Shown here: piece after piece, positions 22,763 through 55,754 of the stretch
Position numbering within the stretch: the stretch's first letter is position 1
Layout of the letters: each line of letters opens with the position of its first letter
NCBI RefSeq assembly: GCF_030384885.1
Contig: NZ_CP128613.1
Strand: one strand, 5' to 3'
DNA: 64,000 nt
DNA from: Escherichia coli
Lineage (GTDB): Bacteria; Pseudomonadota; Gammaproteobacteria; Enterobacterales; Enterobacteriaceae
Program-made: the position numbers and the translations under genes
The notes under the pieces: generated by a model
The model's database searches: none
Seen by the model: only the letters and a program-made list of their open reading frames with translations
Told to the model about the DNA's origin: nothing

Positions 22763-22838
22763 TGGCTCCTCTGACTGGACTCGAACCAGTGACATACGGA
22801 TTAACAGTCCGCCGTTCTACCGACTGAACTACAGAGGA
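22763..22838 (-). tRNA. asnV: tRNA-Asn(GUU)
   Basis: 76-nt reverse complement of canonical tRNA-Asn sequence ending CCA. Confidence 0.97.
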
Positions 22839-24082: not shown

Positions 24083-24183
24083 GCGTTATATCGGGATGGA
24101 ATAAGATGCGGGTTTTTATTATTTGTTATGCCGGGCATTAAACTTTAACAATAACGTGATATCTGAACTGCCCGGAGTTTACC

Positions 24184-25134
24184 GTGAATTTCCAACAACT
24201 AAAGATAATCCGCGAGGCTGCACGTCAGGATTACAACCTGACAGAGGTTGCGAATATGCTTTTTACCTCACAGTCAGGCGTCAGCCGTCACATTCGGGAA
24301 CTGGAGGATGAACTTGGCATCGAAATATTTGTTCGACGAGGTAAGCGACTGCTGGGCATGACTGAACCGGGCAAAGCATTACTGGTCATTGCAGAACGTA
24401 TTCTGAATGAAGCCAGTAATGTTCGTCGGCTTGCAGACCTGTTTACCAACGATACGTCTGGCGTTCTCACTATTGCAACGACGCATACTCAGGCACGTTA
24501 TAGCTTGCCTGAGGTCATTAAAGCTTTTCGCGAACTTTTCCCGGAGGTTCGGCTGGAGCTAATCCAGGGGACGCCACAGGAAATTGCAACTTTGTTGCAA
24601 AATGGCGAAGCTGATATTGGTATCGCCAGCGAGCGTTTAAGTAATGACCCGCAGCTCGTCGCCTTCCCGTGGTTTCGTTGGCACCATAGTTTGCTTGTTC
24701 CACTCGATCATCCCTTGACGCAAATTATACCGTTGACGCTGGAATCAATAGCGAAGTGGCCGTTAATCACTTACCGACAGGGGATTACGGGGCGCTCACG
24801 TATTGATGACGCATTTGTCCGCAAAGGTTTGCTGGCAGATATTGTATTAAGTGCGCAGGATTCTGATGTCATTAAAACCTATGTTGCACTCGGGCTGGGG
24901 ATTGGATTAGTTGCCGAACAATCCAGCGGTGAACAAGAGGAAAAGAATTTAATCCGTCTGGATACGCGGCATCTTTTCGATGCTAATACTGTCTGGTTGG
25001 GACTCAAGCGAGGACAACTTCAGCGTAACTATGTCTGGCGCTTTCTGGAACTTTGTAATGCAGGACTGTCAGTTGAGGATATCAAGCGCCAGGTGATGGA
25101 GAACAGTGAAGAGGAAATTGATTATCAGATATAG
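24184..25134 (+). CDS. cbl: CysB-like LysR-family regulator
   Basis: 316 aa ORF MNFQQLKIIREAARQDYNLTEVA, CysB paralog. Confidence 0.93.
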   Translation: MNFQQLKIIREAARQDYNLTEVANMLFTSQSGVSRHIRELEDELGIEIFVRRGKRLLGMTEPGKALLVIAERILNEASNVRRLADLFTNDTSGVLTIATTHTQARYSLPEVIKAFRELFPEVRLELIQGTPQEIATLLQNGEADIGIASERLSNDPQLVAFPWFRWHHSLLVPLDHPLTQIIPLTLESIAKWPLITYRQGITGRSRIDDAFVRKGLLADIVLSAQDSDVIKTYVALGLGIGLVAEQSSGEQEEKNLIRLDTRHLFDANTVWLGLKRGQLQRNYVWRFLELCNAGLSVEDIKRQVMENSEEEIDYQI

Positions 25135-25135
25135 C

Positions 25136-25165
25136 AAAAAGCCCGCTATAAAAGCGGGCTTTTCA
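25136..25165. terminator. hairpin terminator between cbl and asnU
   Basis: aaaaagcccgctataaaagcgggctttt. Confidence 0.6.
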
Positions 25166-25171
25166 GAAATT

Positions 25172-25247
25172 TGGCTCCTCTGACTGGACTCGAACCAGTG
25201 ACATACGGATTAACAGTCCGCCGTTCTACCGACTGAACTACAGAGGA
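25172..25247 (-). tRNA. asnU: tRNA-Asn(GUU)
   Basis: 76-nt exact tRNA-Asn copy. Confidence 0.97.
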
Positions 25248-25407
25248 ATCGCTGTTGAGGCACATCTTAACGGCGAAAAATTTTTTGTCAAACCCGATTT
25301 TTAAATTCCTCAACTGTTTGCCGTTTCTATCAACAGTTTGTTGCATTTGCAGACAATTTGTCGGCAAAAATCTTTGCAGCTTTGCTGATTCTCCCTCATC
25401 ATTTGAA

Positions 25408-26895
25408 ATGTGGTTTCACTTTTTGCAATTAAGGTCGGCTTTGAATATCTCCTCTGCTTTACGCCAGGTTGTTCACGGCACTCGCTGGCACGCCAAACGC
25501 AAGAGTTACAAAGTGTTGTTCTGGCGCGAGATAACCCCGCTTGCTGTTCCTATCTTCATGGAGAACGCCTGTGTCCTGTTGATGGGTGTCCTGAGCACTT
25601 TTCTGGTCAGCTGGCTGGGAAAAGATGCGATGGCCGGCGTGGGATTGGCGGACAGCTTCAATATGGTCATTATGGCTTTTTTTGCAGCTATCGATCTTGG
25701 TACTACTGTCGTTGTGGCATTTAGTCTCGGTAAGCGGGATCGACGACGAGCGAGGGTGGCGACGCGACAGTCATTGGTGATCATGACGTTGTTTGCCGTA
25801 CTGTTGGCAACGCTTATTCATCATTTTGGCGAACAAATTATTGATTTCGTCGCGGGTGATGCCACGACAGAAGTTAAAGCACTGGCGTTGACTTATCTGG
25901 AGCTGACGGTACTCAGTTATCCAGCAGCTGCCATCACTTTGATTGGTAGCGGGGCACTTCGTGGTGCAGGGAATACGAAAATACCGCTACTGATTAACGG
26001 TAGCCTGAATATTCTTAATATTATTATTAGCGGCATATTGATTTACGGCCTTTTCTCCTGGCCGGGACTGGGATTTGTCGGGGCTGGGTTGGGGTTAACC
26101 ATTTCTCGTTATATTGGCGCAGTGGCAATTTTGTGGGTGCTGGCGATTGGTTTTAATCCTGCGCTAAGGATTTCGTTAAAGAGCTATTTTAAACCGCTGA
26201 ATTTTAGCATTATCTGGGAAGTCATGGGGATTGGTATTCCAGCGAGTGTCGAATCAGTGTTATTTACCAGTGGTCGGTTATTAACCCAAATGTTCGTTGC
26301 CGGGATGGGGACCAGTGTTATTGCCGGGAATTTTATCGCGTTTTCAATTGCGGCTCTTATCAACTTACCCGGAAGTGCGCTCGGCTCTGCTTCTACGATC
26401 ATTACAGGCCGAAGGTTGGGGGTAGGGCAGATAGCGCAAGCAGAGATTCAGTTGCGGCATGTGTTCTGGCTGTCCACTCTTGGATTAACGGCCATCGCCT
26501 GGCTAACGGCTCCCTTTGCTGGGGTTATGGCATCGTTTTACACCCAGGATCCACAGGTTAAACATGTCGTTGTGATTCTGATTTGGCTAAATGCTTTATT
26601 TATGCCTATTTGGTCTGCCTCATGGGTGCTACCCGCTGGATTTAAGGGTGCTCGCGATGCCCGTTACGCCATGTGGGTTTCTATGTTGAGCATGTGGGGT
26701 TGCCGGGTTGTAGTCGGTTATGTGCTGGGAATCATGCTTGGCTGGGGTGTGGTTGGTGTCTGGATGGGAATGTTTGCCGACTGGGCTGTGCGGGCCGTGC
26801 TGTTTTACTGGCGCATGGTTACTGGACGTTGGCTGTGGAAATACCCTAGATCTGAGCCGCAAAAGTGTGAAAAAAAGCCAGTTGTGTTGAAATAA
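25408..26895 (+). CDS. yeeO: MATE-family efflux transporter
   Basis: ORF 25255..26895 with internal start MWFHFLQLRS giving 495 aa; 12-TM MATE topology. Confidence 0.9.
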   Translation: MWFHFLQLRSALNISSALRQVVHGTRWHAKRKSYKVLFWREITPLAVPIFMENACVLLMGVLSTFLVSWLGKDAMAGVGLADSFNMVIMAFFAAIDLGTTVVVAFSLGKRDRRRARVATRQSLVIMTLFAVLLATLIHHFGEQIIDFVAGDATTEVKALALTYLELTVLSYPAAAITLIGSGALRGAGNTKIPLLINGSLNILNIIISGILIYGLFSWPGLGFVGAGLGLTISRYIGAVAILWVLAIGFNPALRISLKSYFKPLNFSIIWEVMGIGIPASVESVLFTSGRLLTQMFVAGMGTSVIAGNFIAFSIAALINLPGSALGSASTIITGRRLGVGQIAQAEIQLRHVFWLSTLGLTAIAWLTAPFAGVMASFYTQDPQVKHVVVILIWLNALFMPIWSASWVLPAGFKGARDARYAMWVSMLSMWGCRVVVGYVLGIMLGWGVVGVWMGMFADWAVRAVLFYWRMVTGRWLWKYPRSEPQKCEKKPVVLK

Positions 26896-26995
26896 ACGAC
26901 AAAGTGCAGATTATTTCAGCAAACGATTTCAAATTTAAAAAACAGGCTTTGACATTGTGGATGGGCGTCGCTAATATTCGCCTCGTTCTCACGAT

Positions 26996-27071
26996 TCCTC
27001 TGTAGTTCAGTCGGTAGAACGGCGGACTGTTAATCCGTATGTCACTGGTTCGAGTCCAGTCAGAGGAGCCA
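26996..27071 (+). tRNA. asnW: tRNA-Asn(GUU)
   Basis: 76-nt exact tRNA-Asn copy, plus strand. Confidence 0.97.
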
Positions 27072-27521
27072 AATTTTAGTTTTGAGACATCTCTATGAGT
27101 CTCAAGACAGTTAAAAAATAAAAATTATTTTTACCCGGTTATCTTGTAAAAAAGTGACTGGGTTTTTTGATTTCTGTGTTTTGTGCGCTTAATCGAGTCT
27201 CACGCTTCAGTGAGCAAATTGCCCCCCAACAGACATCACGATTCGCAAGGTCAAAAAATTCGTTCTGTGAAGTACCGTACAAAGGTATAGAGAAAAATGC
27301 CTTATGCGGGATGTTGCTGTCGCGTTTTTATCGGGAAACTAAACGTAATTGCCACTTTGTCTTCTGTAATCAGAAAAAGAAAACCTGGAATTTTAATAAA
27401 TATTATTTCTCTGGGACCGGTATTTTTATAATCAATATGACGAGTTGAATATTATATTTATTATAAGATTTATATGAAATTAAAGAAATCTGCCATAAAG
27501 ACAGATTTCTTTAAAATATAA

Positions 27522-28238
27522 TTAGAGATTTGCGACGTTATGATAAACTTTTTGAACATCGTCGTCATCTTCAAGGGCATCAACAAGCCCTTCAAAGATT
27601 TCTAAATCTTCTGGGGAAAGCTCAACTTCAGATTGAGCAATCATTTCTAATTCTGTTGTTGAGAACTCAGTGATTCCAGCTGCTTTTAGAGCCGCGATTC
27701 CTTTATGAAGGTCAGTAGGTTCAGTATAAATAACAATATTACCTTCTTCTTCAGTTACATCACGAACATCAACTTCAGCTTCAAGTAAAATTTCAAAAAT
27801 ATGGTCCGGGTCTGTACCTTTAAATACAATCACACCCGTATTGTCAAACATATAGCTGACAGAACCTGCCGCTCCGATATTGCCGCCTTTTTTATTGAAA
27901 ATTGTGCGAACGTTAGCAATCGTACGGTTAACATTTGAAGTCAAGGTTTCAGCGATAATCATTGAGCCATTAGGACCAAAGCCTTCATAACGGCCCTGCA
28001 CGAACGTTTCATCTCCGCCGCCTTTGGCTTTATCAATTGCTTTATCAATAACGTGCTTTGGAACTTGTGCCTGCTTCGCACGTTCAATAACGAATTTTAA
28101 AGATGTGTTTAATTCTGGATCGGGTTCACCTTGTTTGGCAGCAGCATAGATTTCTACACCGAATTTTGCATAAATTTTAGACGTTGCACCGTCTTTAGCC
28201 GTTTTTTTAGCAACAATATTGGCCCATTTACGTCCCAC
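27522..28238 (-). CDS. yeeN: YebC/PmpR-family transcriptional regulator
   Basis: 238 aa [20 protein letters not shown] typical of YebC family. Confidence 0.93.
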
Positions 28239-28579
28239 TGGAATGATCTCCTCGAAAATTTATTTACATTACTGGTAAATCGTTAACATGCGTTAATTCG
28301 GCATATTATATCATAACAGGAAAAATCTCGTCTATTAGAAATAAAAATATTCTAAATCCATAATCTTATATTTAATCTCATAAAAACTAATGTTGTTGGC
28401 GGATTTTTTTATAATTGTGTTTTGAAAGCATACTTGCTTTTAATATATGGAAATCATTAAGGCTATAATAAATCTCGTATCCGCCCCAGGAAGCAAACAG
28501 CCTGCTTTATTGCAGGCTATTTGCTGGATGACTTACTAAATCCTTCACATCTATTCCTGATAAAAAGGAACAGAACTTA

Positions 28580-30034
28580 TTACCGGAACGGCGGTTCATT
28601 AAAGGTTCGTAATTTACGTGAATGCAGTCGGTCGCCTTCTGCGCGCAGCAAATCGATCGCACGAATGCCAATTTGCAGGTGTTCGGAAATAGCGCCTTCA
28701 TAAAAACGGTTAGCCTGACCGGGAAGTTTAATCTCACCATGCAACGGTTTATCTGAAACACACAGTAGTGTCCCGTATGGCACGCGGAAACGATATCCTT
28801 GCGCGGCAATGGTTGCACTTTCCATATCAATTGCCACGGCACGGCTTAAGTTAAAACGAAGTGCAGAAGCTGAGTAACGTAATTCCCAGTTCCTGTCATC
28901 TGTGGTTACCACAGTGCCAGTACGTAGCCGCTGTTTAACTTCCTCTCCGGGCCTGCCGCTGACTAACTTGGTAGCGTCATAAAGCGCACGTTGCACTTCA
29001 GCAATGCTCGGAATAGGAATATCGGGCGGCAGTACCGCATCAAGAACGTGGTCATCGCGTAAATAAGCGTGTGCAAGTACATAATCTCCAATGGCCTGGC
29101 TTTCACGTAAGCCACCACAGTGACCAATCATCAACCAGACATCCGGGCGCAGCACCGCCAGATGATCGCAGATGGTTTTAGCATTTGACGGTCCCACGCC
29201 AATATTCACCAGAGTAATACCCTGACCATCGGCGGTAATTAAATGCCATGCAGGCATCTGATGTTTTTTCCATGCAAGGTCGGAAATGGCTTCTTCTGGC
29301 GCTTCGGTTTCGGCGGTGATCCAGTTCCCGCCAGCACAAGAAAGGGCAATGTAGGGACTATCAGGGTCGAGGATCTGGCTGCATCCCCAACGAACGAATT
29401 CATCCACATAACGTGTGTAGTTGGTAAACAAGACGAACGGCTGAAAATGTTCAACTGGCGTACCGGTATAATGGCGCAACCGTGCGAGGGAAAAATCAAC
29501 CCGGCGCGCATCAAAATGAGATAGCGGGGAGAATTCCGTTGGATGATAAATGCCGTCTGCAGTTTCATCGCCAATTTGCGCCAGTTCTGTTGTCGGGAAG
29601 TAGCGAGTTAATCCAGCGCTCATTGAGCGATCAAGTGTCAATTCAGAGCCATCGATGACATAAGGATAAGGGATTTCATGTTGCGAGGGTTGCACAGAAA
29701 TATGCGCACCATAATCCTGATAAAGCAACGTTAGTTGCTCATTCAGGTACGAACGAAAGAGAGTAGGGCGAGTAATCGTGGTGGTGTAGCTGCCTGCGTG
29801 AGTAAAACGACCAAATGCGCGCGTTTTGGGGGGATTTGTTGTGCTACCGTCCCAGGTTACGGTCAGTTATGGATAGACAAAAAGACCTTCTTTACGGGCA
29901 TTTTCATCAGGTAATTCGCCACTTTTAATATAGTTGCCAATGGCATTGCGTAAAGCGACTACAGATTGCTCATACAGCGCGTCGAGTTTTTCCAGTGCCT
30001 GAGCTGGGGTCAGACCGGAGCCCTTATTATTCAT
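28580..30034 (-). pseudogene. amn: AMP nucleosidase interrupted by an in-frame TAA at codon 56
   Basis: ORFs 29867..30190 (ends ...DENARKEGLFVYP*) and 28580..29728 are in the same frame; the interval between translates without further stops as Amn-like sequence. Confidence 0.85.
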
Positions 30035-30135
30035 GTGTGTCTCCTGTTCCATACAATTACCGCACTTCCGATAGTATGTCACAGGAATGTGAAACAAAAG
30101 TGTAAGGCGAAGATCGGATGATCTTCGCCTGACTA

Positions 30136-31452
30136 TCAAGCGTGTTGATTGTCTTTCATCAACAAAGCGGTTATTGCAGAAATGAGGCATCCAGCCAGCA
30201 AATAAATGGCGACGCTATGCCAGTTTCCAGCAAAATAAGTGATGAGTGCAGCAGCAATAAAAGGTGTAAATCCACCGCCGACCACACTGGCAACCTGATA
30301 TCCGACTCCAGCTCCACTATAGCGATAACTGGCACCAAACATTTCGGTAAACATCGGTTGTTGCACGCACACCACCATGTCATGCGCAATGTTTGCCAGC
30401 ATTATGGAGAAGAAAACTATCCAGAAAATAGATTGTGCTTCAAGCGCTATAAAGAAAGGAAATGCGCTCAACGTTCCGATTAACGCACCTGTGATATAAA
30501 CTCTGCGGCGACCAAAACGATCGGCAAGCCAGGCAAAACAGGGAATTGTCAGGCAGCTTAATCCACCTACCAGCAAACCAATATTGAGGAAAAGTTCGCG
30601 CGGTAACCCCATATTCTGGGTTGAATAATTAAGTGCGAAGGCGGTAACGATGTACATCGTCAGCAACTCGCACAGTCGTAGCGCAATAATCTTCAGAAAA
30701 GCACCGGGATGTCGTAACAGTGCTTCGATAACCGGGATGCGTTTTTGCGCTGCCGCTTGATTATGTTGCTGTTGTTCAAATTCCGCGGACTCCTCCATGC
30801 CATTACGCACCCACAATGCCCCCAGTACCAGTACGATGCTAAACAGGAAAGGAATGCGCCAGCCCCAGCTTAAAAACTGTTCGTCAGTCGTCATCATACT
30901 GATCAATGAAACCAGTCCGGTTGAAAGCAGTAAACCTACACCGTAACCAACTTGTACACCGCTACTGTAAAAGGCTTTTTTATTCTTAGGTGCGCTTTCA
31001 ACGGAAAGCAACGCTGCGCCTCCCCATTCGCCGCCGACGGCAAATCCCTGAATGGCACGCAGTGTCACCAGTAAAATGGGGGCCCACCAACCTATGGTCG
31101 AGAAGGAAGGAAGAATGCCAATCAAGGCTGTCGCGATGCCCATCATCCAGACGGTCAGCATTAACATGCGCTTACGTCCCAGTCGGTCGCCAAAGTGACC
31201 GAAAATGACACCGCCAAGTGGACGGAAAAGGAAGCCGACACCAAAGGTGGCAAATGCGGCGAGCGTTCCCATTGCCGGGCTGACTTGCGGGAAAAACTCG
31301 CGATTAAACACCAGTGCGGCGGTAATGCCATAGAGTAAAAAGTCATACCAGTCGACGACAGCTCCGGCGAAACTGCCAAACGCAGCTCGTCGGGCGCGAC
31401 TTAACGAAAGCGTCCCATCATCGGGACGAGTGGAGATGAGCGTGGTGTCCAT
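30136..31452 (-). CDS. shiA: MFS shikimate/dehydroshikimate transporter
   Basis: 438 aa ORF, MFS sugar-transporter signature (GHFGDRLGRKRMLM). Confidence 0.92.
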   Translation of the reverse strand: MDTTLISTRPDDGTLSLSRARRAAFGSFAGAVVDWYDFLLYGITAALVFNREFFPQVSPAMGTLAAFATFGVGFLFRPLGGVIFGHFGDRLGRKRMLMLTVWMMGIATALIGILPSFSTIGWWAPILLVTLRAIQGFAVGGEWGGAALLSVESAPKNKKAFYSSGVQVGYGVGLLLSTGLVSLISMMTTDEQFLSWGWRIPFLFSIVLVLGALWVRNGMEESAEFEQQQHNQAAAQKRIPVIEALLRHPGAFLKIIALRLCELLTMYIVTAFALNYSTQNMGLPRELFLNIGLLVGGLSCLTIPCFAWLADRFGRRRVYITGALIGTLSAFPFFIALEAQSIFWIVFFSIMLANIAHDMVVCVQQPMFTEMFGASYRYSGAGVGYQVASVVGGGFTPFIAAALITYFAGNWHSVAIYLLAGCLISAITALLMKDNQHA

Positions 31453-31757
31453 AATGATCCTGTTTGTACTGTCTTTTTATAATTAGTATGGAAAAGGTAA
31501 CTCACATTGCCGTCGATCTATAAACGAACCTTATGAGACTACCGCGCCAGAGCGCTTCTGCAAATGATTTTATGGCTGATTAACGGCAACATGAAAAATT
31601 CGATGGAAGATGAAATCGCAGGAGTTGCATAAGGATTGAGCAGAGCACCTACAGTTTTGAGATATGAAACATAAAAGTCCGCATATGCACAAAATTGCAC
31701 CCTGATGATTCTGATAGACTGCATTGCATTTTAACCAGTAGGGAGGCGAGGTTAGGT

Positions 31758-32828
31758 ATGTTTTTAGCATCATTGTTGAGACGTATTGCATTTAGTTACT
31801 ACGATTATAAAGCTAATAATTTCAATATTGGAAAAACAGACTTTGTTGTTATCCACATTCCCGATCAAATTGGCGATGCTATGGCCATCTTTCCAGTTAT
31901 TCGGGCGCTTGAATTGCATAAAATTAAGCATCTTTTAATTGTTACTTCGACTATTAATTTAGAAGTCTTTAATGCGCTCAAACTTGAACAGACTAAATTA
32001 ACATTAGTCACAATGACTATGCAGGATCACGCAACATTAAAAGAAATAAAAGATTTAGCGAAGAACATAACACAGCGATACGGTACGCCGGATCTTTGTA
32101 TAGAGGCGATGCGTAAAAAGAACCTGAAAACGATGTTATTTATCAGTCAGTTGAAAGCAAAAACGAATTTTCAGGTTGTCGGTTTAACCATGAAGTGCTA
32201 TTCCCCTTTGTGTAAGAACGCGTCCCGGATGGATCAGAATCTCAGGGCTCCCGTACCCATGACATGGGCGTTTATGATGCGTGAAGCGGGTTTTCCTGCA
32301 GTCAGGCCAATATATGAATTACCATTAAGCGAGCAGGTAATAAATGAAGTACGTGAGGAATTGTGCACTTTAGGATCTTACATTGCGCTTAATTTAGATG
32401 GCAGCGTGCAGGAACGCACATTTTCGTTATCAGTAGCTGAGAAACTCATCGCCAAAATTCAAAGTGATAATGATATGCCAATAGTCATTGTTCATGGACC
32501 AAAAGGGGAAGATAAAGCCCGGAAATTAGCGGGTTGTTATAATAATGTCTACCGGCTATCCTTATCACCCTCGATTAAACGTTCAGCAGCAATCATAAAA
32601 GATGCTTATATCGCAATAACCCCTGATACCTCAATATTACATATGGCAAGTGCCTATAATACCCCCGTCGTTGCAATTTATGCTGATTACAAAACGCGGT
32701 GGCCTGCGATGGCAGATATCTCGGAGTCAGTGGTCGTTGGGCAAAAAATTGATCATATAAGTTTGGATGAATTCGGAAAGGCGCTAAAAAGTGCTTTGGA
32801 GAGAGTATGTGCCAGTACTTACGTATAG
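31758..32828 (+). CDS. yeeL: glycosyltransferase family 9 (heptosyltransferase-like)
   Basis: ORF 31695..32828, probable start MFLASLLRR; GT9-like C-terminal motifs; apparently intact here. Confidence 0.7.
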   Translation: MFLASLLRRIAFSYYDYKANNFNIGKTDFVVIHIPDQIGDAMAIFPVIRALELHKIKHLLIVTSTINLEVFNALKLEQTKLTLVTMTMQDHATLKEIKDLAKNITQRYGTPDLCIEAMRKKNLKTMLFISQLKAKTNFQVVGLTMKCYSPLCKNASRMDQNLRAPVPMTWAFMMREAGFPAVRPIYELPLSEQVINEVREELCTLGSYIALNLDGSVQERTFSLSVAEKLIAKIQSDNDMPIVIVHGPKGEDKARKLAGCYNNVYRLSLSPSIKRSAAIIKDAYIAITPDTSILHMASAYNTPVVAIYADYKTRWPAMADISESVVVGQKIDHISLDEFGKALKSALERVCASTYV

Positions 32829-33207
32829 AAGGTAATGCCGATCTATGCTGAACAGGGGACATTAATACCCTGAGGTTGGTCAATCACCACAAAAAAAACC
32901 TTTGAATCAAAGCAATACTCACCGAATAATAAGGCAACCTGAACTTAAATCCCCGTTAACTGGCATACATTATTATGACTTGCACTGATGTAATTAGCTA
33001 AATATTATCGTGATTTGACTAAATAGCAAAAATGATAGCTATCAAAAATAGCTCATATACTTTGTTTCCCGCTGCCGTAGAATAGATGGTCCTTCCATGT
33101 TTCAAGCATTTATTCAAAAAAAAGGGGGCTCGACTGTCTTACGATAAACAGAGAGGGATTGTAAAGTCGAGTGCCCCTAATGGAGCACTCTATAAAAAAA
33201 TCAACAA

Positions 33208-36200
33208 TCAAATGTTTTTATAACATGTCACATGAGAAAATCCAAGTTTTGCCATTACGCTTTGCTCACCTGTTGCCAGGGAAATTTCGTATTGTTCATT
33301 GGAGTTTGCGGGACTAGATGACCAATACATATCTGAATAAAAATCGGCTTCATTCATGTAATGCCCCATATCTCCCCATTCACTGTACAATGTCCCTATA
33401 CCTCGGGAACGACCCTGGCTTAAAAGGCTTGCACGGGGAAGCATGTAGCCATTGCTACTGCAAAAATTTTCAGCAAGGCTGTATATCATGAAAGAATCGC
33501 CGGAGTTTACCCACCAACTCTTCACCCGGATTTCGTATATATAGCCAGGGCCTCCTGATTTTGGCGTCGCTGTAATCGTTACCCAACTGCTTCCGACATT
33601 TTTAAATGTCACTTTACCGGTAGCGTCAACATCGACCCAGGAGGCAGAGCTTGAAAACTCATAATCAGCCGCCGTTTTGCCCGGGGAAAAGTTGTCATTA
33701 TTCAACTGATAATAAGCCCCAGTGAACCCCTGCGAAGGGAATGTAGTTGTCGGTAGGTTAGCACCATTGACTAACACGGTACCGCTCATTATTTTGTCTT
33801 CTGCGCGAGTGAATTGTATTGTGGTACTCAGACCCGCTTGATGAACACCATTCAATACAGGGATCAGCGTTGCGATACCCTCTCCGCCTCCTATAACAGT
33901 GGCTTTGTAATCACCGTTGATATTTTGACTGTAATCAATTGCGCTAATTTTCACATAGGGCACGTTAGTACCTGATTGCACAAATTCCATCCCTTCAGAA
34001 ACTTTGATCGGATTGCCTGATATATCGTGCAAAACAAGATGTAGCTCAGCACTATCGGTATAGTCCCCTTTTAGTGATGACCGATTGTTCTTAAGGACGG
34101 ACTGCGAGGCGTCTGCCGGGCCTGCCACCAGCGTTATATTAGCTGTTTGCGTTGCACCTGTGCTCGTTCCTGCACTAACAGTTACGCTCCCAGTTCGCGC
34201 ACTTTTCAAGGTGGTTGTCGCAAATCCGTGTTGATCGGTCACCGCTGTTAATGACCCTAATGTGGCAGAGCCACTTTTTAATGCGAAGTTCACATTGACG
34301 CCTTCGACTTGGTTACCACTGCCGTCCTCAACAGTAGCCTTCAGCGTGCTGATATCGCTGTCGTTGGCAGTGATAGTTGACGGATCAGCGCTCAGGCTGA
34401 CCACATGGGCTGTGCTTTGGTTGCCAGTAACTTTCACGATTGTCTGCGCCTGAATAATTACGCCACTAGTGATAGATGCTGTAACCGTATACGTACCGAC
34501 TTTATTGCTGGTCAGAACGACTTGTGCCTCCCCGGAAGGATTGGTTTTCATTGTTTCGCTACTTAACGTTGCATCTTCTGGCGTTACGCTAAAGGTAACG
34601 AGTTCATTGTTCACTGGGGCCCCATTTGGATTGGTTAGCCTTACTGTCAGAGTTGAACCTAATGGGTCATTGATGCCGATAAGTGGACTTGATGCTGTGA
34701 GTGTCAGTTTTAAATCGATTACCACCAGGTCCTTCTCATAAGAGGAGCCATTCGCCAGGGATGCTTGCACAGTATACGAACCGTATCTATTGGGCGTCAT
34801 GGTGACCTCGGCTATACCCTGTGTATTCGTAGAGACCGTATCCTGACTAATGACCATGTTAAAAAATGACGGCTCTGCACTGAATGTCACAAGCTGTTCA
34901 GAAACTGGATTGCCAAACTGGTCGTCGACGTGCGCTTTAACCGCCAGGGGGGTTGCGACCATAACCTGACCTTCAGGCATTTCCAGACTGGTGATCGTCG
35001 CAGAATCAGCATCTGCTTTGACAGTCAACGTTTGCATGATGGTATCTGTAGGTGCATTTGCCAGATTAGCCACAACAATTTTCGTCCCTGCAATGGTGCT
35101 TGTTACAAGAATTTCTGCCTTACCCTGAGCATCTGTTTCAGCGGTGGTGTTACTCAGCGTGGCGGATAAGCCGCGGAAATTGACCTTGATGCCTTCTAAT
35201 GGATTGTCATAAGCGTCAGTGACACTTGCCGTCAGGGTCGCACCCTCGGTTGTGCTGGCGATTAATGAGCTTGATGATGCGGTAAAATCAGCCAGTTTAG
35301 CGGTACTCGCATCGGCAAGCAAAGTCACCGGCCTCGTATCACTGACACCATAACTGTCCACGCTGACCGTCACGGGATAGGTGCCGGACTTCGTACCGCT
35401 TAGTGTAACTTCCGCCTTGCCGTTGATGTCAGTAATGGCGGAACCGCCTTCTCCAAGAGTGAAGCTTGCACTCACATCTGCCGGTAGTGTGAATGTCACC
35501 GGCTCATTGGCTAACGGGTTGCCGTGTCCATCAGTCACCGTTGCCTGAAGTTGGGTCATCCCAACGTTATTGGCGATAAAGTTGTTCTCGGTAACGTTCA
35601 GATTAACCTGCGCTGTGAGCGTATCCGCAATAAAGTTCACCACCAACTGCTCACTCTTACCGCCAGCCATCGCTGCTGTCACGGTATGTGCTCCTGCTTT
35701 TGTACCTTTCAGTGTGACTTTCGCTTTGCCTTCAGCATCAGTAACCGCTTTACCGCCATCGCTCAGCGTGAAGTTTGCCCTCACATCTTCCGGGAGAGTA
35801 AATGTTACTTCAGTGTTGGCTATCGCATTGCCCTCTGTATCTGCGACTGTTGCTGTTAATGTCGTGAGATCGTTATTGTCGGCAATCACCGGATCTTTTG
35901 AGGCTCCCAGCGTGATTTCAGCATTCGCCACGTTCGGCACATAGGTCACTGTTTGTTGTATCGAATCGCCATTGTCGAGCGTTGCCGTCACTTGATAAAC
36001 CCCGGCTTTTGTAGCGGTAAAGCTTGCGTAAAAATGGCCGTAGGAGTTGGTAGTATATATAGCGTTATTACTGGGGGTCACACCTTCACTTGGCGAAACG
36101 CTGATGGTCACCTTATGTTGGGGTACACCGTTTCCGTAATTATCGTTTACCACAACATACAGATCGGTCGTGTTGCCTGCGGAGACTGTATCAGTAAGTG

Positions 36201-37251
36201 CTTGTAACAAGGTGATATGTGCCGTAGACGCATCAGCGTTGACATTAATTGATGTGCTAAGCGTGGAGCTACCATTTTCCAGACTGGCCTCAACGGTATC
36301 CGGCCTCCCTCCTGATTCTGCCGAGGAACGGGTATTGGTATAAGTGACGGTTGCCTTACCCTGTTCGTTCGTTACGGCTTGGCCGCCATTCGTCATTTCA
36401 GCAGAGTTTGTACTGCTGGTGAAACTCACAGTTACACCTTTCACCGGAAAGCTATTATTATCAACGACTGTCGCGGTGATGACGCTGCCGGTGCTATTCT
36501 GCGGGGTACCAGCGATTATGCTGTTTGGGACAGACGTCAACCCAATAATTTTTGCCGCAGCTGTGTCGCCAATAAAGTGCACAGTTTTGTGGTCGCTGGC
36601 ACCATTATTAGCAAGTGATACAGTGACCGTCTGCTCACCAAAGGCAACGCCTACGAGAGTGGCCTGCGCGATGCCAGACTCATTGGTATTACTCTCCCCT
36701 GGGGTGAGGGTGAGGCCTGAAGAGGCTGAGCTGAATGTTACCGGAAGATTGTTCACCTCATTGTCGAACTGGTCTTTAACCGTTGCAGTTAACGTTGCAC
36801 TATCGACGCCATTACCCGTGATCTCATCTTTTGACATCTGCAGGGCAACCTGAGCCGAGGTTTTGTCTGCCACAAATGTTACCGGCTGCGATTCACTGGC
36901 ATTGTTATTAATCAGCGTCGCGGTAACTGTATGCGTGCCCGCTTTTTTACCTTTGAGGGTGACATGCGCTTCCCCATTGGCTTGGGTGACGGTAATACCG
37001 TTATTTTCAAGGGTAAAGTTTGCCGCGACGTCTTGTGGCATGGTGAAATTCACCGCTATCCCCGCCACCGGATGATTCGACGGATCTTTCACTGTAGCTG
37101 TCAGCTGCACACTGTCGCTGTTATTCGTCACCACCTGGTGAGCAGGAATGTTCAGCGTGAGCCGCGCGTTGCTGGCATCGGGAGCAATATTGACTGTCTT
37201 CGAATCGCTATTGCCGTTAGGCAGAGTGGCTTCGGCTGTATGAACACCCAA
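33208..37251 (-). pseudogene. yeeJ: inverse-autotransporter adhesin, 5'-truncated (Big-domain array and C-terminal lectin-like domain retained)
   Basis: 1347 aa ORF of repeated bacterial Ig-like modules (VTLKGxKAGTHTVTA...) ending ...CYKNI; no signal peptide, LysM or beta-barrel region upstream; ORF abuts hypE fragment. Confidence 0.8.
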
Positions 37252-37286
37252 TACCGCGCCTTTTAGGGTAACTTCAGCAAACCGCC

Positions 37287-37535
37287 ATGGCAGCTAATAT
37301 GCTGGGTGTTGACGTCATTAATCTCGCTAATGAAGGTTGTTTGTGCCTGTTTGTTGAACCTGAGTATGCTCAGAAGGTACTACATTTGCTGCAGGAGCAT
37401 CCTGTCGGCAAGCACGCGACAATTATCGGCGAGATCACCGCTGTCTCGGGTACTGAAGTCTATATGATTGAAGCTGATGGAACACACACAGAAGTCGAGG
37501 AATTATATGGCGCAGAATTACCCAGACTCTGTTGA
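37287..37535 (+). pseudogene. HypE-like C-terminal fragment (ends with conserved PRxC)
   Basis: 82 aa ORF ...HPVGKHATIIGEI...ELPRLC matching HypE C-terminus including terminal Cys; N-terminal about 250 aa absent. Confidence 0.7.
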
Positions 37536-39885
37536 GCTTCACGAGACGCCGGAAACCCGGCGTTACCGCATCTGTGGGGTCGTTCAGGGCGTTGGATTTC
37601 GTCCCTTTGTTCACCGACTGGCCCGCACCTATGGTGCCACCGGCTGGGTGTTAAACGATTCAGAAGGCGTGTTGCTTGAGCTGCAGGCATCCGGCACGGT
37701 TATTGCCAGAATCATGGACAAACTGGTGACCGAGGCACCACCACTGGCAAAAATCATCAGTACGCAGGAAGTTAGCCCAACGGATACCAGAGCGCACTAT
37801 GAAACGTTCAGCATCCGTAAAAGCCGCGATCATACCAGCATGGACACGATTATCCCGCCAGATACCAACGTCTGCAGCGATTGCCTGCGCGAGATAAGCG
37901 ATCCTGATAATCATCGTTATCGTTACGCTTTCACCAATTGCACCAATTGTGGGCCGCGCTATTCCATTATTCTTGGTATGCCTTACGATCGTGCCCAGAG
38001 CACTATGCGTAAATTCCCTTTATGTCCAACCTGTGAGCGTGAATACAACGATATTGAGGATCGACGCTATCATGCCCAGCCCAATGCCTGCCCAGTTTGC
38101 GGCCCACAGTTGCAACTTACCGATCGACAGGGCACATCCGTTCACACAGATGATATTGTCAAATTTGCCATTACGAAACTAAAAGAAGGCGGAATTCTTG
38201 CAATAAAGAGCCTTGGTGGCTTTCATCTCGTGGCCGATGCTTGCAATGAGAATGCTGTCAATGAACTTCGGCAACGCAAGCGAAGAGACGCCAAACCTTT
38301 TGCAGTGATGGTCGCGGATGTGGAAAGCGCGTCGCGTATTGCTTTCATCCCCCCCTGTAATCACAAATTGCTGGAAAGCCCGCAGCGTCCCATTGTCTTG
38401 TTGTATAAGCGCAACGTCCTGCTGGCGAGTACCGTTGCGCCACATAATCCGAACATCGGTGTAATGCTGCCTTCAACGCCGCTTCAGCATTTATTGCTGG
38501 AAGACCCGTCTCTGCCGATCCTGATTATGACCAGCGGTAATATTTCCGGTCATCCGATCGTCTTTGACAACGACATGGCAATTAAGCAACTCGGGAAAAT
38601 CGCGGATTACTTCATTCTGAATAATCGCGATATTCATACGCGTGTTGACGATTCGGTGGTCCGCACGGTGTTTCGCAACGACGCCATTACCTCGCAGCTA
38701 TCGTTTTTGCGCCGCTCCCGCGGTTACGCGCCATACCCTATTCATCTACCTTACGCAGTGGATTCCGTTATCGCGCTCGGGGCGGAGCTAAAAAACACGA
38801 TCAGCATCGGCAAAGGAAAACAGGTTTTTCTGAGCCAGCATATTGGCGATCTTAAGAATAACGTGACTTTTAAATCACATATCGAATGTATTGATCATCT
38901 TCAAAACCTGCTGAACGTGAAGGCAAATGTCGTGGCCTGCGATTTGCATCCCTCTTTCCGCTCTACCCGGCATGCGCTGGAGAATTTAGAGCATCAGGTT
39001 GTTCAGGTTCAACACCATCACGCGCATATGGCATCCTGCATGGCGGAAAATGGCCTGTCAGGTACTACTCTAGGCGTAATTTTTGACGGTACAGGATATG
39101 GCACCGACGGCACCATTTGGGGCGGTGAGTTTCTCGTTGGTGATTTCGAAAAATTCGAGCGTGCAGGATGCTTGCGTTCAATGACCCTGCCCGGAGGCGA
39201 TCGGGCAGTTAAAGAGCCGCTGCGCGTCGGCATCTCCTTACTGGTGGAAACCTTCGGCGAAGATATCAGTACGCTCGCAGTACCAGGCTTGCAGGCGCTC
39301 CAGCCTCAGCAGCGCGATATATTCAGTAAAATGGCGACCAGAAAAATCAACACCACCACGACCAGCAGCATGGGCAGACTATTTGACGGCATCGCCGCGC
39401 TGATGGGCGTTTGCACTCAGGTGGAGTACGAAGCCCAGGCGGCCATTGAACTGGAAGCGCTGCTGCAGTGTAAACTTCATATGACGGCTCCGTTCAGCTA
39501 CATCATTGCCGATGTCGAGAATAAGCTCGAGGTGGATTATCGCCCGATGATAAGGGAACTGGTGCAATGCTTCAGCCAGCCCGGTTTTGATATGGCCGAA
39601 CTAAGTCGGCGCTTTCACTCTACCATCGTCGACATGATTTGCGAGGTCTGTAAACGTCTGGTGGCACGCTCAGGCACGCAACAAATTGTCCTGAGCGGCG
39701 GCGTGTTCTGCAATGAATTCATCCTCGTTAATTCTCTTAACAGTCTGGAGTCTTGTGGATTCCGGCCTTACAGCCATCAGTTAGTTCCGACTAACGATGG
39801 TGGTATTTCATTGGGGCAAGTGGTTATTGCTACCGCATACACTCGCGCAACGCGCAATAAAAATCTGGAGAGAGAAAATGCATAG
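37507..39885 (+). CDS. HypF-like carbamoyltransferase (acylphosphatase, two Zn-fingers, YrdC, Kae1 domains)
   Basis: ORF 37468..39885; RBS gagga before ATG 37507; acylphosphatase motif VQGVGFRPFV, two CxxC...CxxC pairs, YrdC and Kae1-like regions. Confidence 0.85.
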   Translation: MAQNYPDSVELHETPETRRYRICGVVQGVGFRPFVHRLARTYGATGWVLNDSEGVLLELQASGTVIARIMDKLVTEAPPLAKIISTQEVSPTDTRAHYETFSIRKSRDHTSMDTIIPPDTNVCSDCLREISDPDNHRYRYAFTNCTNCGPRYSIILGMPYDRAQSTMRKFPLCPTCEREYNDIEDRRYHAQPNACPVCGPQLQLTDRQGTSVHTDDIVKFAITKLKEGGILAIKSLGGFHLVADACNENAVNELRQRKRRDAKPFAVMVADVESASRIAFIPPCNHKLLESPQRPIVLLYKRNVLLASTVAPHNPNIGVMLPSTPLQHLLLEDPSLPILIMTSGNISGHPIVFDNDMAIKQLGKIADYFILNNRDIHTRVDDSVVRTVFRNDAITSQLSFLRRSRGYAPYPIHLPYAVDSVIALGAELKNTISIGKGKQVFLSQHIGDLKNNVTFKSHIECIDHLQNLLNVKANVVACDLHPSFRSTRHALENLEHQVVQVQHHHAHMASCMAENGLSGTTLGVIFDGTGYGTDGTIWGGEFLVGDFEKFERAGCLRSMTLPGGDRAVKEPLRVGISLLVETFGEDISTLAVPGLQALQPQQRDIFSKMATRKINTTTTSSMGRLFDGIAALMGVCTQVEYEAQAAIELEALLQCKLHMTAPFSYIIADVENKLEVDYRPMIRELVQCFSQPGFDMAELSRRFHSTIVDMICEVCKRLVARSGTQQIVLSGGVFCNEFILVNSLNSLESCGFRPYSHQLVPTNDGGISLGQVVIATAYTRATRNKNLERENA

Positions 39886-40618
39886 TTCTGCGAACCGTAT
39901 TGCCGCTGTTTTATTCGATATGGATGGTGTCCTTATTGATTCCAATGCGGTGATTGAGCGCGGCTGGGCTGAAGGCGCACAGATGTTTGGCAAGACGCTA
40001 ACGGAAGAGGATATCGTCAGGCATATTCACGGACAGCCCGGCCCGCATACCATTCGCGCCCTGTTCAGCGACCTTTCCCTGGAAGATCAAAAGAAGGTCC
40101 AGTCACATATCATCCACGTTGAAAATACCGCTGATTACGACCCGATCCCTGGAGTTAGCGAACTTATCCAGGCGTTGCATAAGGCTGGCATCAGTGTGGG
40201 GATTGTCACTAGCGGCTGGCGGTCGAAAATCGATCGTATTATGGAGATGCTGCAAATCACGCCCTGTATTTCAGTGATTGTCGAACGTGATGATGTCGTG
40301 CGCGGCAAGCCTTATCCCGATCCTTATCTGCTTGCCGCAGAGCGGTTTCATCTTGCACCGTCCAGAACACTGGTCTTTGAGGATTCAAGAAGCGGCGTAA
40401 CATCTGCTGTTACAGCAGGCGCAATTTGTGTTGGCATCGGTACAGACAGTCTGAAAGAGTGCGGTGCCGTGCTTGCAATTACAGATTTTCGTAATGTGAA
40501 AATCACCTCACAGACAGGCGAAAAAGTAGTGATTGCCTTTACTCCAGAGCACCAGATGGAGATGGAAACTCAGAGCTCTCGTAAGAAAACATCCTGTACC
40601 ACAAGAGAAGAGTGCTAA
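39878..40618 (+). CDS. HAD-superfamily hydrolase (beta-phosphoglucomutase-like subfamily IA)
   Basis: ORF 39797..40618, start MHSSANRIAAVLFDMDGVLIDS (DxDG motif), start overlaps hypF-like stop. Confidence 0.8.
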   Translation: MHSSANRIAAVLFDMDGVLIDSNAVIERGWAEGAQMFGKTLTEEDIVRHIHGQPGPHTIRALFSDLSLEDQKKVQSHIIHVENTADYDPIPGVSELIQALHKAGISVGIVTSGWRSKIDRIMEMLQITPCISVIVERDDVVRGKPYPDPYLLAAERFHLAPSRTLVFEDSRSGVTSAVTAGAICVGIGTDSLKECGAVLAITDFRNVKITSQTGEKVVIAFTPEHQMEMETQSSRKKTSCTTREEC

Positions 40619-52469: not shown

Positions 52470-53432
52470 TTGCTATCCATCCAGAACGTCATAGCCAATA
52501 CCGATCCGTTCTTTCTTCTCCGGTTCTTCCACCATACCGTTCTGATTGAAGAAGGAACAACGCTGGCAAGTATCTTTCTGGCAATAGAACCATGGAAGGC
52601 TTTGTTAGCAGCTTATCTGGACAGAGATGTTGGTGCTTATATAGATGAGGTAAGAAAACCGTCCGGGCCAACGGCATGGGATATTGAATGGATCGGAATT
52701 GACCGTCGAAGTTCGGTTTATCGCGCTTACAAGCGTCAGGATATGGAAGAAGGGGAGGATTTTTCGACCTATTTTAATCGCGAGCGCTTCCCGACTGATG
52801 AGCTTGACATAGAAAGTAGCTGTGATGCTTCCGGCTTTATCAAAGGAGATAAAGAACGCTGGAGTATCAGCGGCGATATTCAACAAATTAAAAATCTTCC
52901 TGTAATCCTCTATAGCAAACAGACATTAATGACTTCACCGAAAGACGGTTTGCTGAAGAAAAACGTATCGGGTGTGAAGAGTTCCAAGCACAGTTGCTTT
53001 GTTTATGGCGATACCTCGTTTTCTTTTAGAGAGGTTATGGAAGCCATCTTCATTAGTAGGCTGTTCTTCTATGCACCAAAAGACGCAGCCAGCAGCCTTG
53101 ATGAGCTGAAAGCGAGTCTGGCTGAACTGGAAGAAGAACGTGCTGAAAGCACAAATACGGAGTCGATCGGCAATGAAACAGGTGAAGAACCTACCATCGT
53201 CGTAGCCGACGGTGCTTTTGATTCGCTCGCTGCTCACATGGAGTCTGAAAAGCGGAGTGGCAATCCATTAAGAAGTTGTGCCAGCAGGAAGGAGGGCTGC
53301 CCATACGTATTGGCAACATCAAAATGGCTGAGCCTCCAGCGTTATAGCTATTTTAAGAAAAGAAATGATGTAAATATGCATCTGGTTTTTCTTTATAATG
53401 TAAGGATGTCCGATGAAACATCAGCATCGTGA
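52470..53432 (+). CDS. hypothetical protein, possibly frameshifted at N-terminus
   Basis: 320 aa ORF with only a TTG start and no SD; a 33-codon ORF with strong RBS (aggagaagg) begins at about 52393 in the -1 frame and overlaps. Confidence 0.45.
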   Translation: MLSIQNVIANTDPFFLLRFFHHTVLIEEGTTLASIFLAIEPWKALLAAYLDRDVGAYIDEVRKPSGPTAWDIEWIGIDRRSSVYRAYKRQDMEEGEDFSTYFNRERFPTDELDIESSCDASGFIKGDKERWSISGDIQQIKNLPVILYSKQTLMTSPKDGLLKKNVSGVKSSKHSCFVYGDTSFSFREVMEAIFISRLFFYAPKDAASSLDELKASLAELEEERAESTNTESIGNETGEEPTIVVADGAFDSLAAHMESEKRSGNPLRSCASRKEGCPYVLATSKWLSLQRYSYFKKRNDVNMHLVFLYNVRMSDETSAS

Positions 53433-53640
53433 ATGTTATCTGGTTAATAATTTTCTTATGTAATATTATCTATGCCATCTGGCTATGTTTTCAATTGTTT
53501 TAGTTCTCGACAACTGTTTTTATATCCAGTATGATTTTACTCGTATCCGGCAGAATATTTTTAGATGCTGTTTCATGAACTCCGGTTGAAAGGTTTATTC
53601 TCTACTTTTGGGAATAATAGTTAAAATGGAGATAAGTGTA

Positions 53641-55077
53641 ATGACGTTTAGTAATGAAATTGAAGTTTTCATAAAAGATTTTGTTAAAGATCTTGAAAAT
53701 GATTGTGCTGCTATTTTTTCTGGCGCAGGAATGTCTAAAAGTCAAGGTTATGTTGATTGGAAAGAATTACTTAGCGATATAGCAGAAGAACTTAGTTTAG
53801 ACATTAATAAAGAAGACGATCTAATATCGCTTGCTCAATTTCATGTTAATGAAAAGAAAGGGGCTACAAAACTCACAAGGAAGATAATCGAAGAGTTTTC
53901 TGAGCAAGCCGAGCCATCAGAGGTTCATAATATAATTGCTCGTTTACCGATTAAGACATTTTGGACAACAAACTATGACACTTTAATTGAAGATAGTCTG
54001 CGGAAAGTTTACAAAATTGCAGATGTAAAAAGAAACATAGATGATTTAAATACAACACGACCTAAGCGAGACGCGATAGTATATAAAATGCATGGTGATA
54101 TTTCGTCCCCATCCAAGGCTATTTTATATAAAGAGCAGTATGAAAAATACTACAGAACACACGCTTCATTTATCACCGCACTTAGCGGAGATTTAATATC
54201 AAAAACCTTTCTATTCATAGGGTTTAGTTTTACCGACCCAAATCTGGATTACATTTTGAGTCGTTTGTATACTCATTCTGGGGACAAGAGGACACACTAT
54301 TGCTTTATGAAGAATGAGGCTAATAATTCCCTAGATGATGAAGAAACAGTAAATTATAAGATCAGAAAACAAAAACTGCGAATCGATGATCTCAAGAGAT
54401 TTGGTATACAAGTATTATTAATAGATGAATATTCTGACATCCCTAAAATTCTAGCTAAGATAGAGCAATCATTTAAAAAGAAAACGATATTTATTTCTGG
54501 TAGTGCAGAAAAATATGGGGATCTTGAAAGACCTAAAGCATTAGATTTTATTCACACATTAGCATATGAGATTATAAAGAATAATTATAGGATAGTGAAT
54601 GGATTTGGATGGGGCGTCGGAAGTTCTGTGATAAATGGTGCGTTGGATGCAATTTATAGTAGGCCAGATAAATTATCAGAAGAACAGCTCATTGTTAGAC
54701 CATTTCCACAAACTGTCAGTAAGGGGAAAGATATTCAAGAACTTTGGGAGGAGTATAGACAGAGAATGATTCCTCTTGGTGGTATTGCATTGTTTATTTT
54801 TGGAAATAAACAAGAGGAAAATAATGATATAGTTAATGCTAGGGGAGTATTTAGAGAGTTTGAGATTGCTGTTCAACATGGCCTTGTACCAATTCCTTTA
54901 CCCAATACCGGGTATATGTCTAAATATATATTTGAACAAATATCACAAGATCCTAAGAAATATTATGGAAGTAATGAATGGATATATAATGATTTGTCTG
55001 AGCTTACTGAAAAAGATTTTTCGGTAAAAAAAACAATAGAAGTTGTAATAAAAATCATAAACAAACTGAATAAATAA
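53641..55077 (+). CDS. thsA: Thoeris ThsA-like protein (N-terminal SIR2 NADase, C-terminal SLOG domain)
   Basis: ORF 53608..55077; SIR2 motifs FSGAGMS, TTNYD, HGD; C-terminal Rossmann-like FISGSAEKYG... SLOG region; length matches ThsA. Confidence 0.85.
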   Translation: MTFSNEIEVFIKDFVKDLENDCAAIFSGAGMSKSQGYVDWKELLSDIAEELSLDINKEDDLISLAQFHVNEKKGATKLTRKIIEEFSEQAEPSEVHNIIARLPIKTFWTTNYDTLIEDSLRKVYKIADVKRNIDDLNTTRPKRDAIVYKMHGDISSPSKAILYKEQYEKYYRTHASFITALSGDLISKTFLFIGFSFTDPNLDYILSRLYTHSGDKRTHYCFMKNEANNSLDDEETVNYKIRKQKLRIDDLKRFGIQVLLIDEYSDIPKILAKIEQSFKKKTIFISGSAEKYGDLERPKALDFIHTLAYEIIKNNYRIVNGFGWGVGSSVINGALDAIYSRPDKLSEEQLIVRPFPQTVSKGKDIQELWEEYRQRMIPLGGIALFIFGNKQEENNDIVNARGVFREFEIAVQHGLVPIPLPNTGYMSKYIFEQISQDPKKYYGSNEWIYNDLSELTEKDFSVKKTIEVVIKIINKLNK

Positions 55078-55093
55078 TATATTAGGTGAAGTT

Positions 55094-55705
55094 ATGGCTC
55101 ATGAAACATTCATATCATATAAATATAGTGAAGCACAGGATTTAAGAGACAAAATTGTCAAGGCATTAGGAGATGACGCTGTTTACTATAAAGGGGAGAC
55201 ATCGGAGTCTCCTGATATAAGTAATACAACAGTAGATAATATAAAGAACAATCTTAAAAATATGATTTTCGGGACATCTGTTTTAATTGTTATTATTTCC
55301 CCGAATATGATTAAAAGTAAATGGATTGACTGGGAAATTGAATATGCATTGAAAGAATACAAGAGAGGAGGAACCACTTCCCGAACTAATGGCATTGTTG
55401 GTGTGATAATGAAGGTTAATAATAGCTATGACTGGTTAGTATCTTCTTCAATCAAGCCTGATGGATGTTCATCAAGAACTATTGATACAACTAAACTATA
55501 TGACATTATTAATAATAATAGGTTTAATTTAACTTCAGAAGATAAATATTGTTGCCCTGAGTGCAAATCATATGATCAATTGACTGGTTCTTATATTTCA
55601 TTGATAGAAGAAGACCGATTTTTAGCAGATGTATCTTCATACATTGAAAATGCCTATGAGAAATCTAAAAAATTAAGTTCCTACGATTTATATAAACAAA
55701 AATAG
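55094..55705 (+). CDS. thsB: Thoeris ThsB-like TIR-domain protein
   Basis: 203 aa, N-terminal FISYKYSEAQ and SKWIDWEIEYAL typical of bacterial TIR domains; 16 bp downstream of thsA. Confidence 0.8.
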   Translation: MAHETFISYKYSEAQDLRDKIVKALGDDAVYYKGETSESPDISNTTVDNIKNNLKNMIFGTSVLIVIISPNMIKSKWIDWEIEYALKEYKRGGTTSRTNGIVGVIMKVNNSYDWLVSSSIKPDGCSSRTIDTTKLYDIINNNRFNLTSEDKYCCPECKSYDQLTGSYISLIEEDRFLADVSSYIENAYEKSKKLSSYDLYKQK

Positions 55706-55754
55706 ATGATAACGGAAAAGGGCCACAATTATTTGTGGCCTATATATACACATA

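Follow-up and report, generated by a model that had tools for sequence, protein, structure and literature searches.

The window analyzed here, a 64,000-nucleotide stretch of Escherichia coli DNA, contains two adjacent genes, thsA and thsB, and these raise the question of whether a low-GC island of this bacterium carries a complete defense against phages or a TIR-domain gene that serves some other end. An earlier note, made from the letters of the sequence, had assigned the pair to type I Thoeris. Our analysis bears out this assignment with respect to the domains, the catalytic and signal-pocket residues, the TIR fold, the catalytic Glu, and the conservation of the operon across phyla, and we conclude that thsAB is very probably a canonical, intact type I Thoeris abortive-infection system. 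It is already known in kind, being recognized end to end by PADLOC, with Pfam covering its domains, and is in this respect an ordinary member of its class.

In the established model of type I Thoeris, ThsB detects infection and makes 3'cADPR, which acts on the SLOG domain of ThsA and leads to depletion of NAD+ by the SIR2 domain. A literature search recovered no published work on this locus or on its protein accessions, and the function of thsAB is for this reason assigned by homology: the signal molecule, the loss of NAD, the protection against phages, and the trigger of the system are all projected from characterized relatives. By this projection, the TIR protein ThsB would sense a phage cue in the infected cell and would use E81 to make 3'cADPR, a glycocyclic ADP-ribose isomer, from NAD+. 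This molecule would bind the conserved pocket that ThsA has in its C-terminal SLOG/STALD domain and, by binding, switch on the N-terminal SIR2 domain (N111 and H151), upon which cellular NAD+ would be hydrolyzed and phage replication halted.

Organization of the locus

Two adjacent, co-directional genes had been noted at 53641-55705, and the open reading frames (ORFs) lie exactly there, both on the plus strand and separated by a 16-nt gap. The first, thsA (53641..55077, +), codes for a 478-aa SIR2-SLOG effector, a predicted NAD+ hydrolase recognized through PADLOC, PDB, and RefSeq matches; the second, thsB (55094..55705, +), codes for a 203-aa TIR-domain protein, a predicted sensor and signal synthase recognized through PADLOC and through its AlphaFold/PDB fold. 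The longer form of the thsA ORF begins at a TTG (53608..55077), and the ATG at 53641 yields the 478-aa RefSeq product. ThsA is 100% identical to WP_001519853.1, which bears the RefSeq name "SIR2 family protein." ThsB shows a single difference from WP_001519852.1 ("TIR domain-containing protein"), namely, S182 here versus L, and the UniRef name for the one-residue variant of ThsB is Thoeris ThsB domain protein.

Both ORFs are intact. A Shine-Dalgarno-like GGAG precedes the ATG of thsA by 10 nt and a similar AGGTGA precedes that of thsB by 6 nt, and the two genes together make up a single predicted operon. About 105 nt upstream of thsA, a consensus scan recovered a sigma-70 promoter-like site (TCGACA-17-TATGAT; 53507..53535, +; 10/12 matches); because such sites are no commoner in the thsAB region than in shuffled sequence, we treat it as a candidate only. 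At the other end, a GC-rich hairpin (GGCCACAATTATTTGTGGCC; 55721..55740, no strand assigned), recovered by a scan for terminator-like elements and visible in the sequence, lies between thsB and a convergent downstream lipoprotein gene and is likely a terminator common to these two genes.

Carrier island and neighboring genes

The island begins just after tRNA-Ser(cga) (43794..43883), and its far end falls outside the window. The distal end of the island in E. coli 2016C-3878 has an integrase, which lies before zinT. The GC content of the island is 37% and that of thsAB is 32%, compared with 49% for the remainder of the window (core). The host is E. coli: two complete genomes match the his operon segment at 100% identity, and most others match it at 95-99%. 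Among the products of the island genes are truncated and full-length H-NS homologs, a RepL-like protein, a MobQ relaxase, a type IV pilin, PilV, and a SEN1984-family lipoprotein, and the search of the island for structured RNAs yielded an Rfam match only to tRNA-Ser. The earlier note had placed the pair in a horizontally acquired island, and the low GC content, the tRNA-Ser, and the mobile-element genes uphold this part of its claim: thsAB is, as judged from this context, cargo of a low-GC mobilizable island at tRNA-Ser. In 48 of 5,426 complete E. coli genomes, thsAB was recovered at 99.2% DNA identity and was always chromosomal; no plasmid in PLSDB had the pair, and a plasmid origin was rejected on this ground.

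This island resembles the ROD21/EARL islands in its low GC content and in its full-length and truncated H-NS homologs, relaxase, type IV pilus genes, and SEN1984-family lipoprotein, and some ROD21/EARL members carry TIR genes. However, ROD21/EARL islands are defined by their integration at Asn-tRNA, whereas the island described here abuts tRNA-Ser(cga), and the likeness concerns the carrier element rather than the Thoeris system. No literature linking Thoeris with ROD21 was found in our search.

The further statement that the pair sits beside other defense-like genes is only weakly true. The single additional defense candidate is a 616-aa NACHT NTPase (46832..48682), encoded about 5 kb upstream and recognized by Pfam alone (6.4e-10). 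Its gene was absent at the DNA level from all of the complete E. coli genomes searched, and a 98%-identical protein is found in Salmonella enterica. PADLOC and NCBIfam scans recovered no other convincing defense system either in 10 neighboring ORFs, where the best PADLOC match, to Cas6 (E=0.0038), was set aside as spurious, or in 8 ORFs at 27-42 kb, a stretch that comprises ordinary E. coli genes (yeeN-like, amn, shiA, an intimin-like adhesin, and hypF-like).

The nature of the carrier bears on whether the system operates in this strain. The pair might be a true Thoeris system by descent that is inactive in its present host, either through silencing of the H-NS type or because no coliphage triggers it. 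Since the island is AT-rich and encodes both full-length and truncated H-NS homologs, the operon may indeed be silenced in the host, and the low GC content of thsAB relative to the core and a sole promoter candidate that does not exceed the shuffle background fit with such a state. We nevertheless regard inactivity as unlikely: both ORFs are intact and furnished with ribosome-binding sites, and both genes are clearly under purifying selection. ThsA recurs unchanged on at least 1000 contigs ("MULTISPECIES Enterobacteriaceae"), and ThsB remains 65-68% identical across phyla.

The SIR2-SLOG effector

The profile searches and defense-system annotation that had been named as checks of the Thoeris assignment both returned it: significant Pfam matches were obtained to SIR2, SLOG/STALD, and TIR, and PADLOC recovered both proteins at full length. 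ThsA matched the PADLOC ThsA model PDLC00407 with E=8.2e-203 (residues 3-478 on 2-477 of 478), and ThsB matched the ThsB model PDLC00428 with E=1.1e-85 (residues 1-202 on 1-218 of 219), values that chance does not come near. The SIR2 and SLOG regions proposed for the N- and C-terminal halves of the first gene product correspond, respectively, to a SIR2_2 core (residues 106-232; 53956..54336, +; Pfam PF13289, 3.1e-29) and to a predicted signal-binding STALD/SLOG domain (residues 266-475; 54436..55065, +; Pfam PF18185, 2.4e-71, 1-210 of 211), the name STALD denoting in Pfam the "Sir2- and TIR-associating SLOG family." The motifs quoted for the two proteins are likewise all present, namely, FSGAGMS, WTTNYD, and MHGD in ThsA and FISYKYSEAQ and SKWIDWEIEYAL in ThsB.

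The best solved relative of ThsA is E. coli ThsA (EcThsA; PDB code 8WC0; E=8e-191), which shares 283 of 473 aligned residues with it (60% identity), followed by B. cereus ThsA (BcThsA; 6LHX/8BTO; 47% identical) and then by S. equi ThsA (7UXT). Mapping through HMMER alignments places the predicted catalytic residues N111 (codon 53971-53973, +) and H151 (codon 54091-54093, +) opposite N112 and H152 of BcThsA; the numbers N117/H157 in the earlier note were incorrect. In the B. cereus Thoeris system, the N112A mutation of ThsA abolishes both defense and NAD depletion.

The predicted signal pocket is similarly well preserved. The residues of BcThsA that contact 3'cADPR in the SLOG complex are G289, S290, L326, Q359, R371, K388, G399, and E403, and their equivalents in the present ThsA are G287, S288, W324, Q357, R373, K390, G402, and E406. 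Seven of these eight residues are identical between the two proteins, and every polar contact is kept. The exception is at the position of the adenine-stacking L326 of BcThsA, where W324 represents a hydrophobic-to-aromatic change; EcThsA likewise has a Trp there.

The TIR protein and its C-terminal extension

The second gene product, described beforehand as a TIR protein of roughly 200 aa, proved to have 203 aa, with Pfam matches to ThsB_TIR (1e-11), TIR_2 (3e-6), and TIR (6e-4) and with fold matches to ThsB structures. Homologs recovered at E<=1e-5 numbered 2,333; a length of exactly 203 aa and an identity of 64-91% apply to most of the listed homologs, which span Enterobacterales, Cupriavidus, and Bacteroidota. 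The TIR core (residues 6-105; 55109..55408, +; delimited by Pfam ThsB_TIR and TIR_2) includes the putative catalytic Glu, E81 (codon 55334-55336, +), which lies in a W-E-I motif and is invariant across an alignment of 30 homologs. A profile search aligned E81 with BcThsB E85 (chain position 86 in 9B7D and 87 in 6LHY), and the E85Q mutation of BcThsB abolishes both defense and signal production. Past the TIR core, the protein continues in a C-terminal extension (55409..55702, +) in which D123, C125, C154, and C157 are invariant in the same 30-homolog alignment and which matches BdThsB1, the Thoeris TIR1 of Bacillus (Cytobacillus) dafuensis FJAT-25496, in fold; we consider this extension a candidate for the sensor part of the protein.

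The AlphaFold model of ThsB, generated from the 30-homolog alignment (pLDDT 80.4; pTM 0.81), recovered as its top four fold matches in the PDB BdThsB1 (9VYL, with NAD; TM 0.80, 28% identity), EcThsB (8WCF), the ThsB-Tad3 complex (9B7D), and BcThsB (6LHY), with eukaryotic TIR domains ranking after these four. By sequence, too, the nearest solved protein is 9VYL, designated "cyclic ADP-D-ribose synthase TIR1" (E=1.3e-17). Since no characterized ThsB exceeds 28% identity to the present one, the isomer that the latter produces and its trigger are assumed.

Persistence of the gene pair across taxa

We located seven ThsB homologs from different taxa in their contigs to examine the conservation of the pair. 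In six of them, thsB is immediately preceded, in the same orientation, by a gene for a 477-480-aa protein with SIR2_2 and STALD domains; these are a Muricauda-labeled ThsB cluster (read on metagenome/MAG contigs) and the homologs from Cupriavidus pauculus, Enterobacter cloacae, Pectobacterium polaris, Serratia marcescens, and Cellulophaga baltica. The genes flanking the six pairs are unrelated between taxa, and a conserved third gene accompanying thsAB was thereby ruled out. Between E. coli, the Muricauda-labeled cluster, and Cupriavidus, ThsB is the more conserved of the two proteins (65-68% identity versus 53-56% for ThsA). The 90%-identity cluster of ThsA has near-identical members labeled Salmonella, Citrobacter, and Klebsiella.

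The one exception among the seven is the ThsB of Serratia fonticola, which is 77% identical to that of E. coli and occurs without a ThsA partner; tblastn detected no remnant of thsA at its locus. Its neighbors are genes for an LD_cluster2 (SLOG-like) protein, a TIR_2 protein, and an LD_cluster2-patatin protein, an arrangement resembling the multi-TIR, SLOG-effector systems described in the literature. The same neighborhood is compatible with a ThsB that also feeds other SLOG-type effectors or makes a signal other than 3'cADPR (e.g., 2'cADPR or another ADPR derivative), and the Trp in place of the adenine-stacking BcThsA L326, together with published evidence that TIR clusters are common to different Thoeris types, points in the same direction. 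Yet all polar 3'cADPR contacts of the BcThsA SLOG pocket are conserved, and BcThsA is activated by the signal of B. dafuensis TIR1, the closest characterized ThsB, leaving a different signal or a wider set of effectors very unlikely for this operon and 3'cADPR acting on ThsA the favored reading.

The island has ROD21/EARL-like content, and the EARL paper takes ORFs with TIR domains on islands of this kind to encode virulence factors. This might suggest that ThsB is instead directed at the host, disturbing mammalian TLR/MyD88 signaling as a "Tcp" in the manner of Salmonella TlpA or UPEC TcpC. Such a role is extremely improbable, given that the TIR gene is not a stand-alone gene but is coupled by the 16-nt gap to a SIR2-SLOG gene, that the pair is kept in marine and soil bacteria (the Muricauda-labeled cluster, Cellulophaga, and Cupriavidus) and not only in animal-associated hosts, that every one of the nearest structures is a Thoeris ThsB, and that the Tcps of EARL islands are listed as 139, 169, and 293 aa, against the 203 aa of ThsB. 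A more specific proposal, that ThsB is the positional equivalent of TlpA, was rejected on gene order and size.

Significance

The main value of identifying thsAB as a type I Thoeris system lies in correct annotation: this E. coli island carries a predicted abortive-infection defense, and phage defense accounts better than host-directed virulence for the presence of a TIR gene on an island of the ROD21-like kind. In the carriers, which make up about 1% of complete E. coli genomes, thsAB could restrict the use of phages in therapy or in typing. The locus opens no new mechanistic question, since the structure and biochemistry of type I Thoeris have already been well described.

A more speculative reading, which we hold to be doubtful, is that the 203-aa ThsB lineage represents a portable sensor cassette, with the Asp/Cys3 cluster of its C-terminal part forming a metal-binding module for phage recognition, that could be coupled to effectors besides ThsA. 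It was suggested by the unusually high identity of 65-68% between E. coli and Bacteroidota, which exceeds that of ThsA, by the invariance of the Asp/Cys3 residues, and by the ThsA-less copy in Serratia fonticola. If it were true, at least some of the TIR genes on ROD21-like "pathogenicity" islands, which have hitherto been interpreted as virulence factors, may be anti-phage cargo.

Relationship to characterized Thoeris systems

The B. cereus Thoeris system shares with thsAB the two-gene architecture of a SIR2-SLOG protein and a TIR protein, a ThsA that is 47% identical with conserved N112/H152 and 3'cADPR pocket, and the catalytic Glu of ThsB. In contrast, B. cereus ThsB itself is a distant relative of the present ThsB (profile E=0.014; ~15% identity in the fold alignment), which differs from it in having a C-terminal extension of ~100 aa, and the host in our case is, unlike that of the B. 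cereus system, a Gram-negative enterobacterium.

Closer on the side of the TIR protein is BdThsB1 of B. dafuensis FJAT-25496, the closest ThsB that is both solved and characterized (profile E=1.7e-26; TM 0.80); a literature search for BdThsB1 returned nothing. Its alignment covers the full length of ThsB, the C-terminal extension included; however, C154 and C157, two of the three Cys residues invariant in the E. coli clade, are unmatched in it, and B. dafuensis has two thsB genes compared with the one found here. When the B. dafuensis TIR1 is co-expressed with ThsA, B. subtilis is protected against several phages, and the resulting lysate activates BcThsA.

On the side of the effector, the closest system is the E. 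coli Thoeris represented by 8WC0 and 8WCF, which comes from the same species, belongs to the same system type, and has a ThsA 60% identical over 473 aligned residues. EcThsB (8WCF), presumably the partner of the 8WC0 ThsA to judge only by the names of the entries, belongs in contrast to another TIR lineage, with a length of 160 aa, a phmmer E of 0.065, and 16% identity to ThsB in the fold alignment. Relative to this system of its own species, thsAB keeps the effector and differs in its sensor module.

Conservation and partnerships of ThsB

In the usual picture of Thoeris systems the ThsB sensors are the variable component. The system studied here (thsA, 53641..55077; thsB, 55094..55705; both on the plus strand) shows the opposite, in that ThsB is better conserved than its effector: across E. 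coli, a Muricauda-labelled metagenome/MAG locus and Cupriavidus, the ThsB proteins share 65-68% identity, as against 53-56% for the partner ThsA proteins. ThsB ends in a C-terminal extension (residues 106-203, encoded at 55409..55702), in which D123, C125, C154 and C157 are unchanged in an alignment of 30 ThsB homologues from several phyla. Of these cysteines, only C125 is aligned with a cysteine of BdThsB1, the Bacillus (Cytobacillus) dafuensis TIR1 protein that is the nearest solved ThsB (PDB code 9VYL). The extension could serve as a metal site or as an element of a sensor.

A homologue from Serratia fonticola with 77% identity to the ThsB of the window (loci L006/L007, 3300-8612) was recovered with neither a neighboring ThsA nor a ThsA remnant at its locus. 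Its neighbors are instead an SLOG-like LD_cluster2 protein (272 aa), a TIR_2 protein (404 aa) and a protein that combines LD_cluster2 and patatin domains, and this context suggests that the same TIR lineage is also wired to effectors other than ThsA.

Gene neighborhood of the Thoeris island

Four tRNA-Asn genes (22763, 25172, 26996 and 42727) and the tRNA-Ser(cga) gene (43794) are packed into 21 kb (22763..43883), in the asn/serU region that is a classic hot-spot for integration in E. coli. This stretch also holds an accessory-looking gene cluster (31695..41811) encoding a heptosyltransferase-like ORF, a 1347-aa intimin/invasin-like adhesin, a HAD phosphatase, an MFS transporter and, outside any hydrogenase context, a HypF-type carbamoyltransferase (E = 6e-237). 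E. coli 2016C-3878 carries a second island, with an integrase, IS3 and T6SS genes, at the tRNA-Asn adjoining mtfA, and this island is missing from the corresponding site in the window.

Immediately 5' of thsA lies a 320-aa ORF (52470..53432, plus strand) that matched no family in PADLOC or NCBIfam and is not kept beside thsAB in the other taxa sampled; the corresponding gene of E. coli 2016C-3878 is annotated as a frameshifted hypothetical protein. About 5 kb upstream of thsA, the island carries a possible defence gene of the bacterial NLR-like kind (46832..48682, plus strand). Its 616-aa product is a NACHT-domain NTPase (Pfam PF05729, 6.4e-10) with Walker A (GIAGQGKST) and Walker B (MLDGFDE) motifs, for which PADLOC and NCBIfam scans returned no match. 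The DNA of this gene was found in none of the complete E. coli genomes, 5,426 in all. Salmonella enterica commonly has a protein with 98% identity to the product, and Serratia marcescens has one that is 70% identical.

Two H-NS homologues encoded on the island, one truncated (a 95-aa ORF; 46172..46459, plus strand) and one full length (134 aa; 48894..49298, minus strand), could silence or regulate the island cargo, including thsAB. The same combination of truncated and full-length H-NS homologues has likewise been described for the ROD21/EARL islands.
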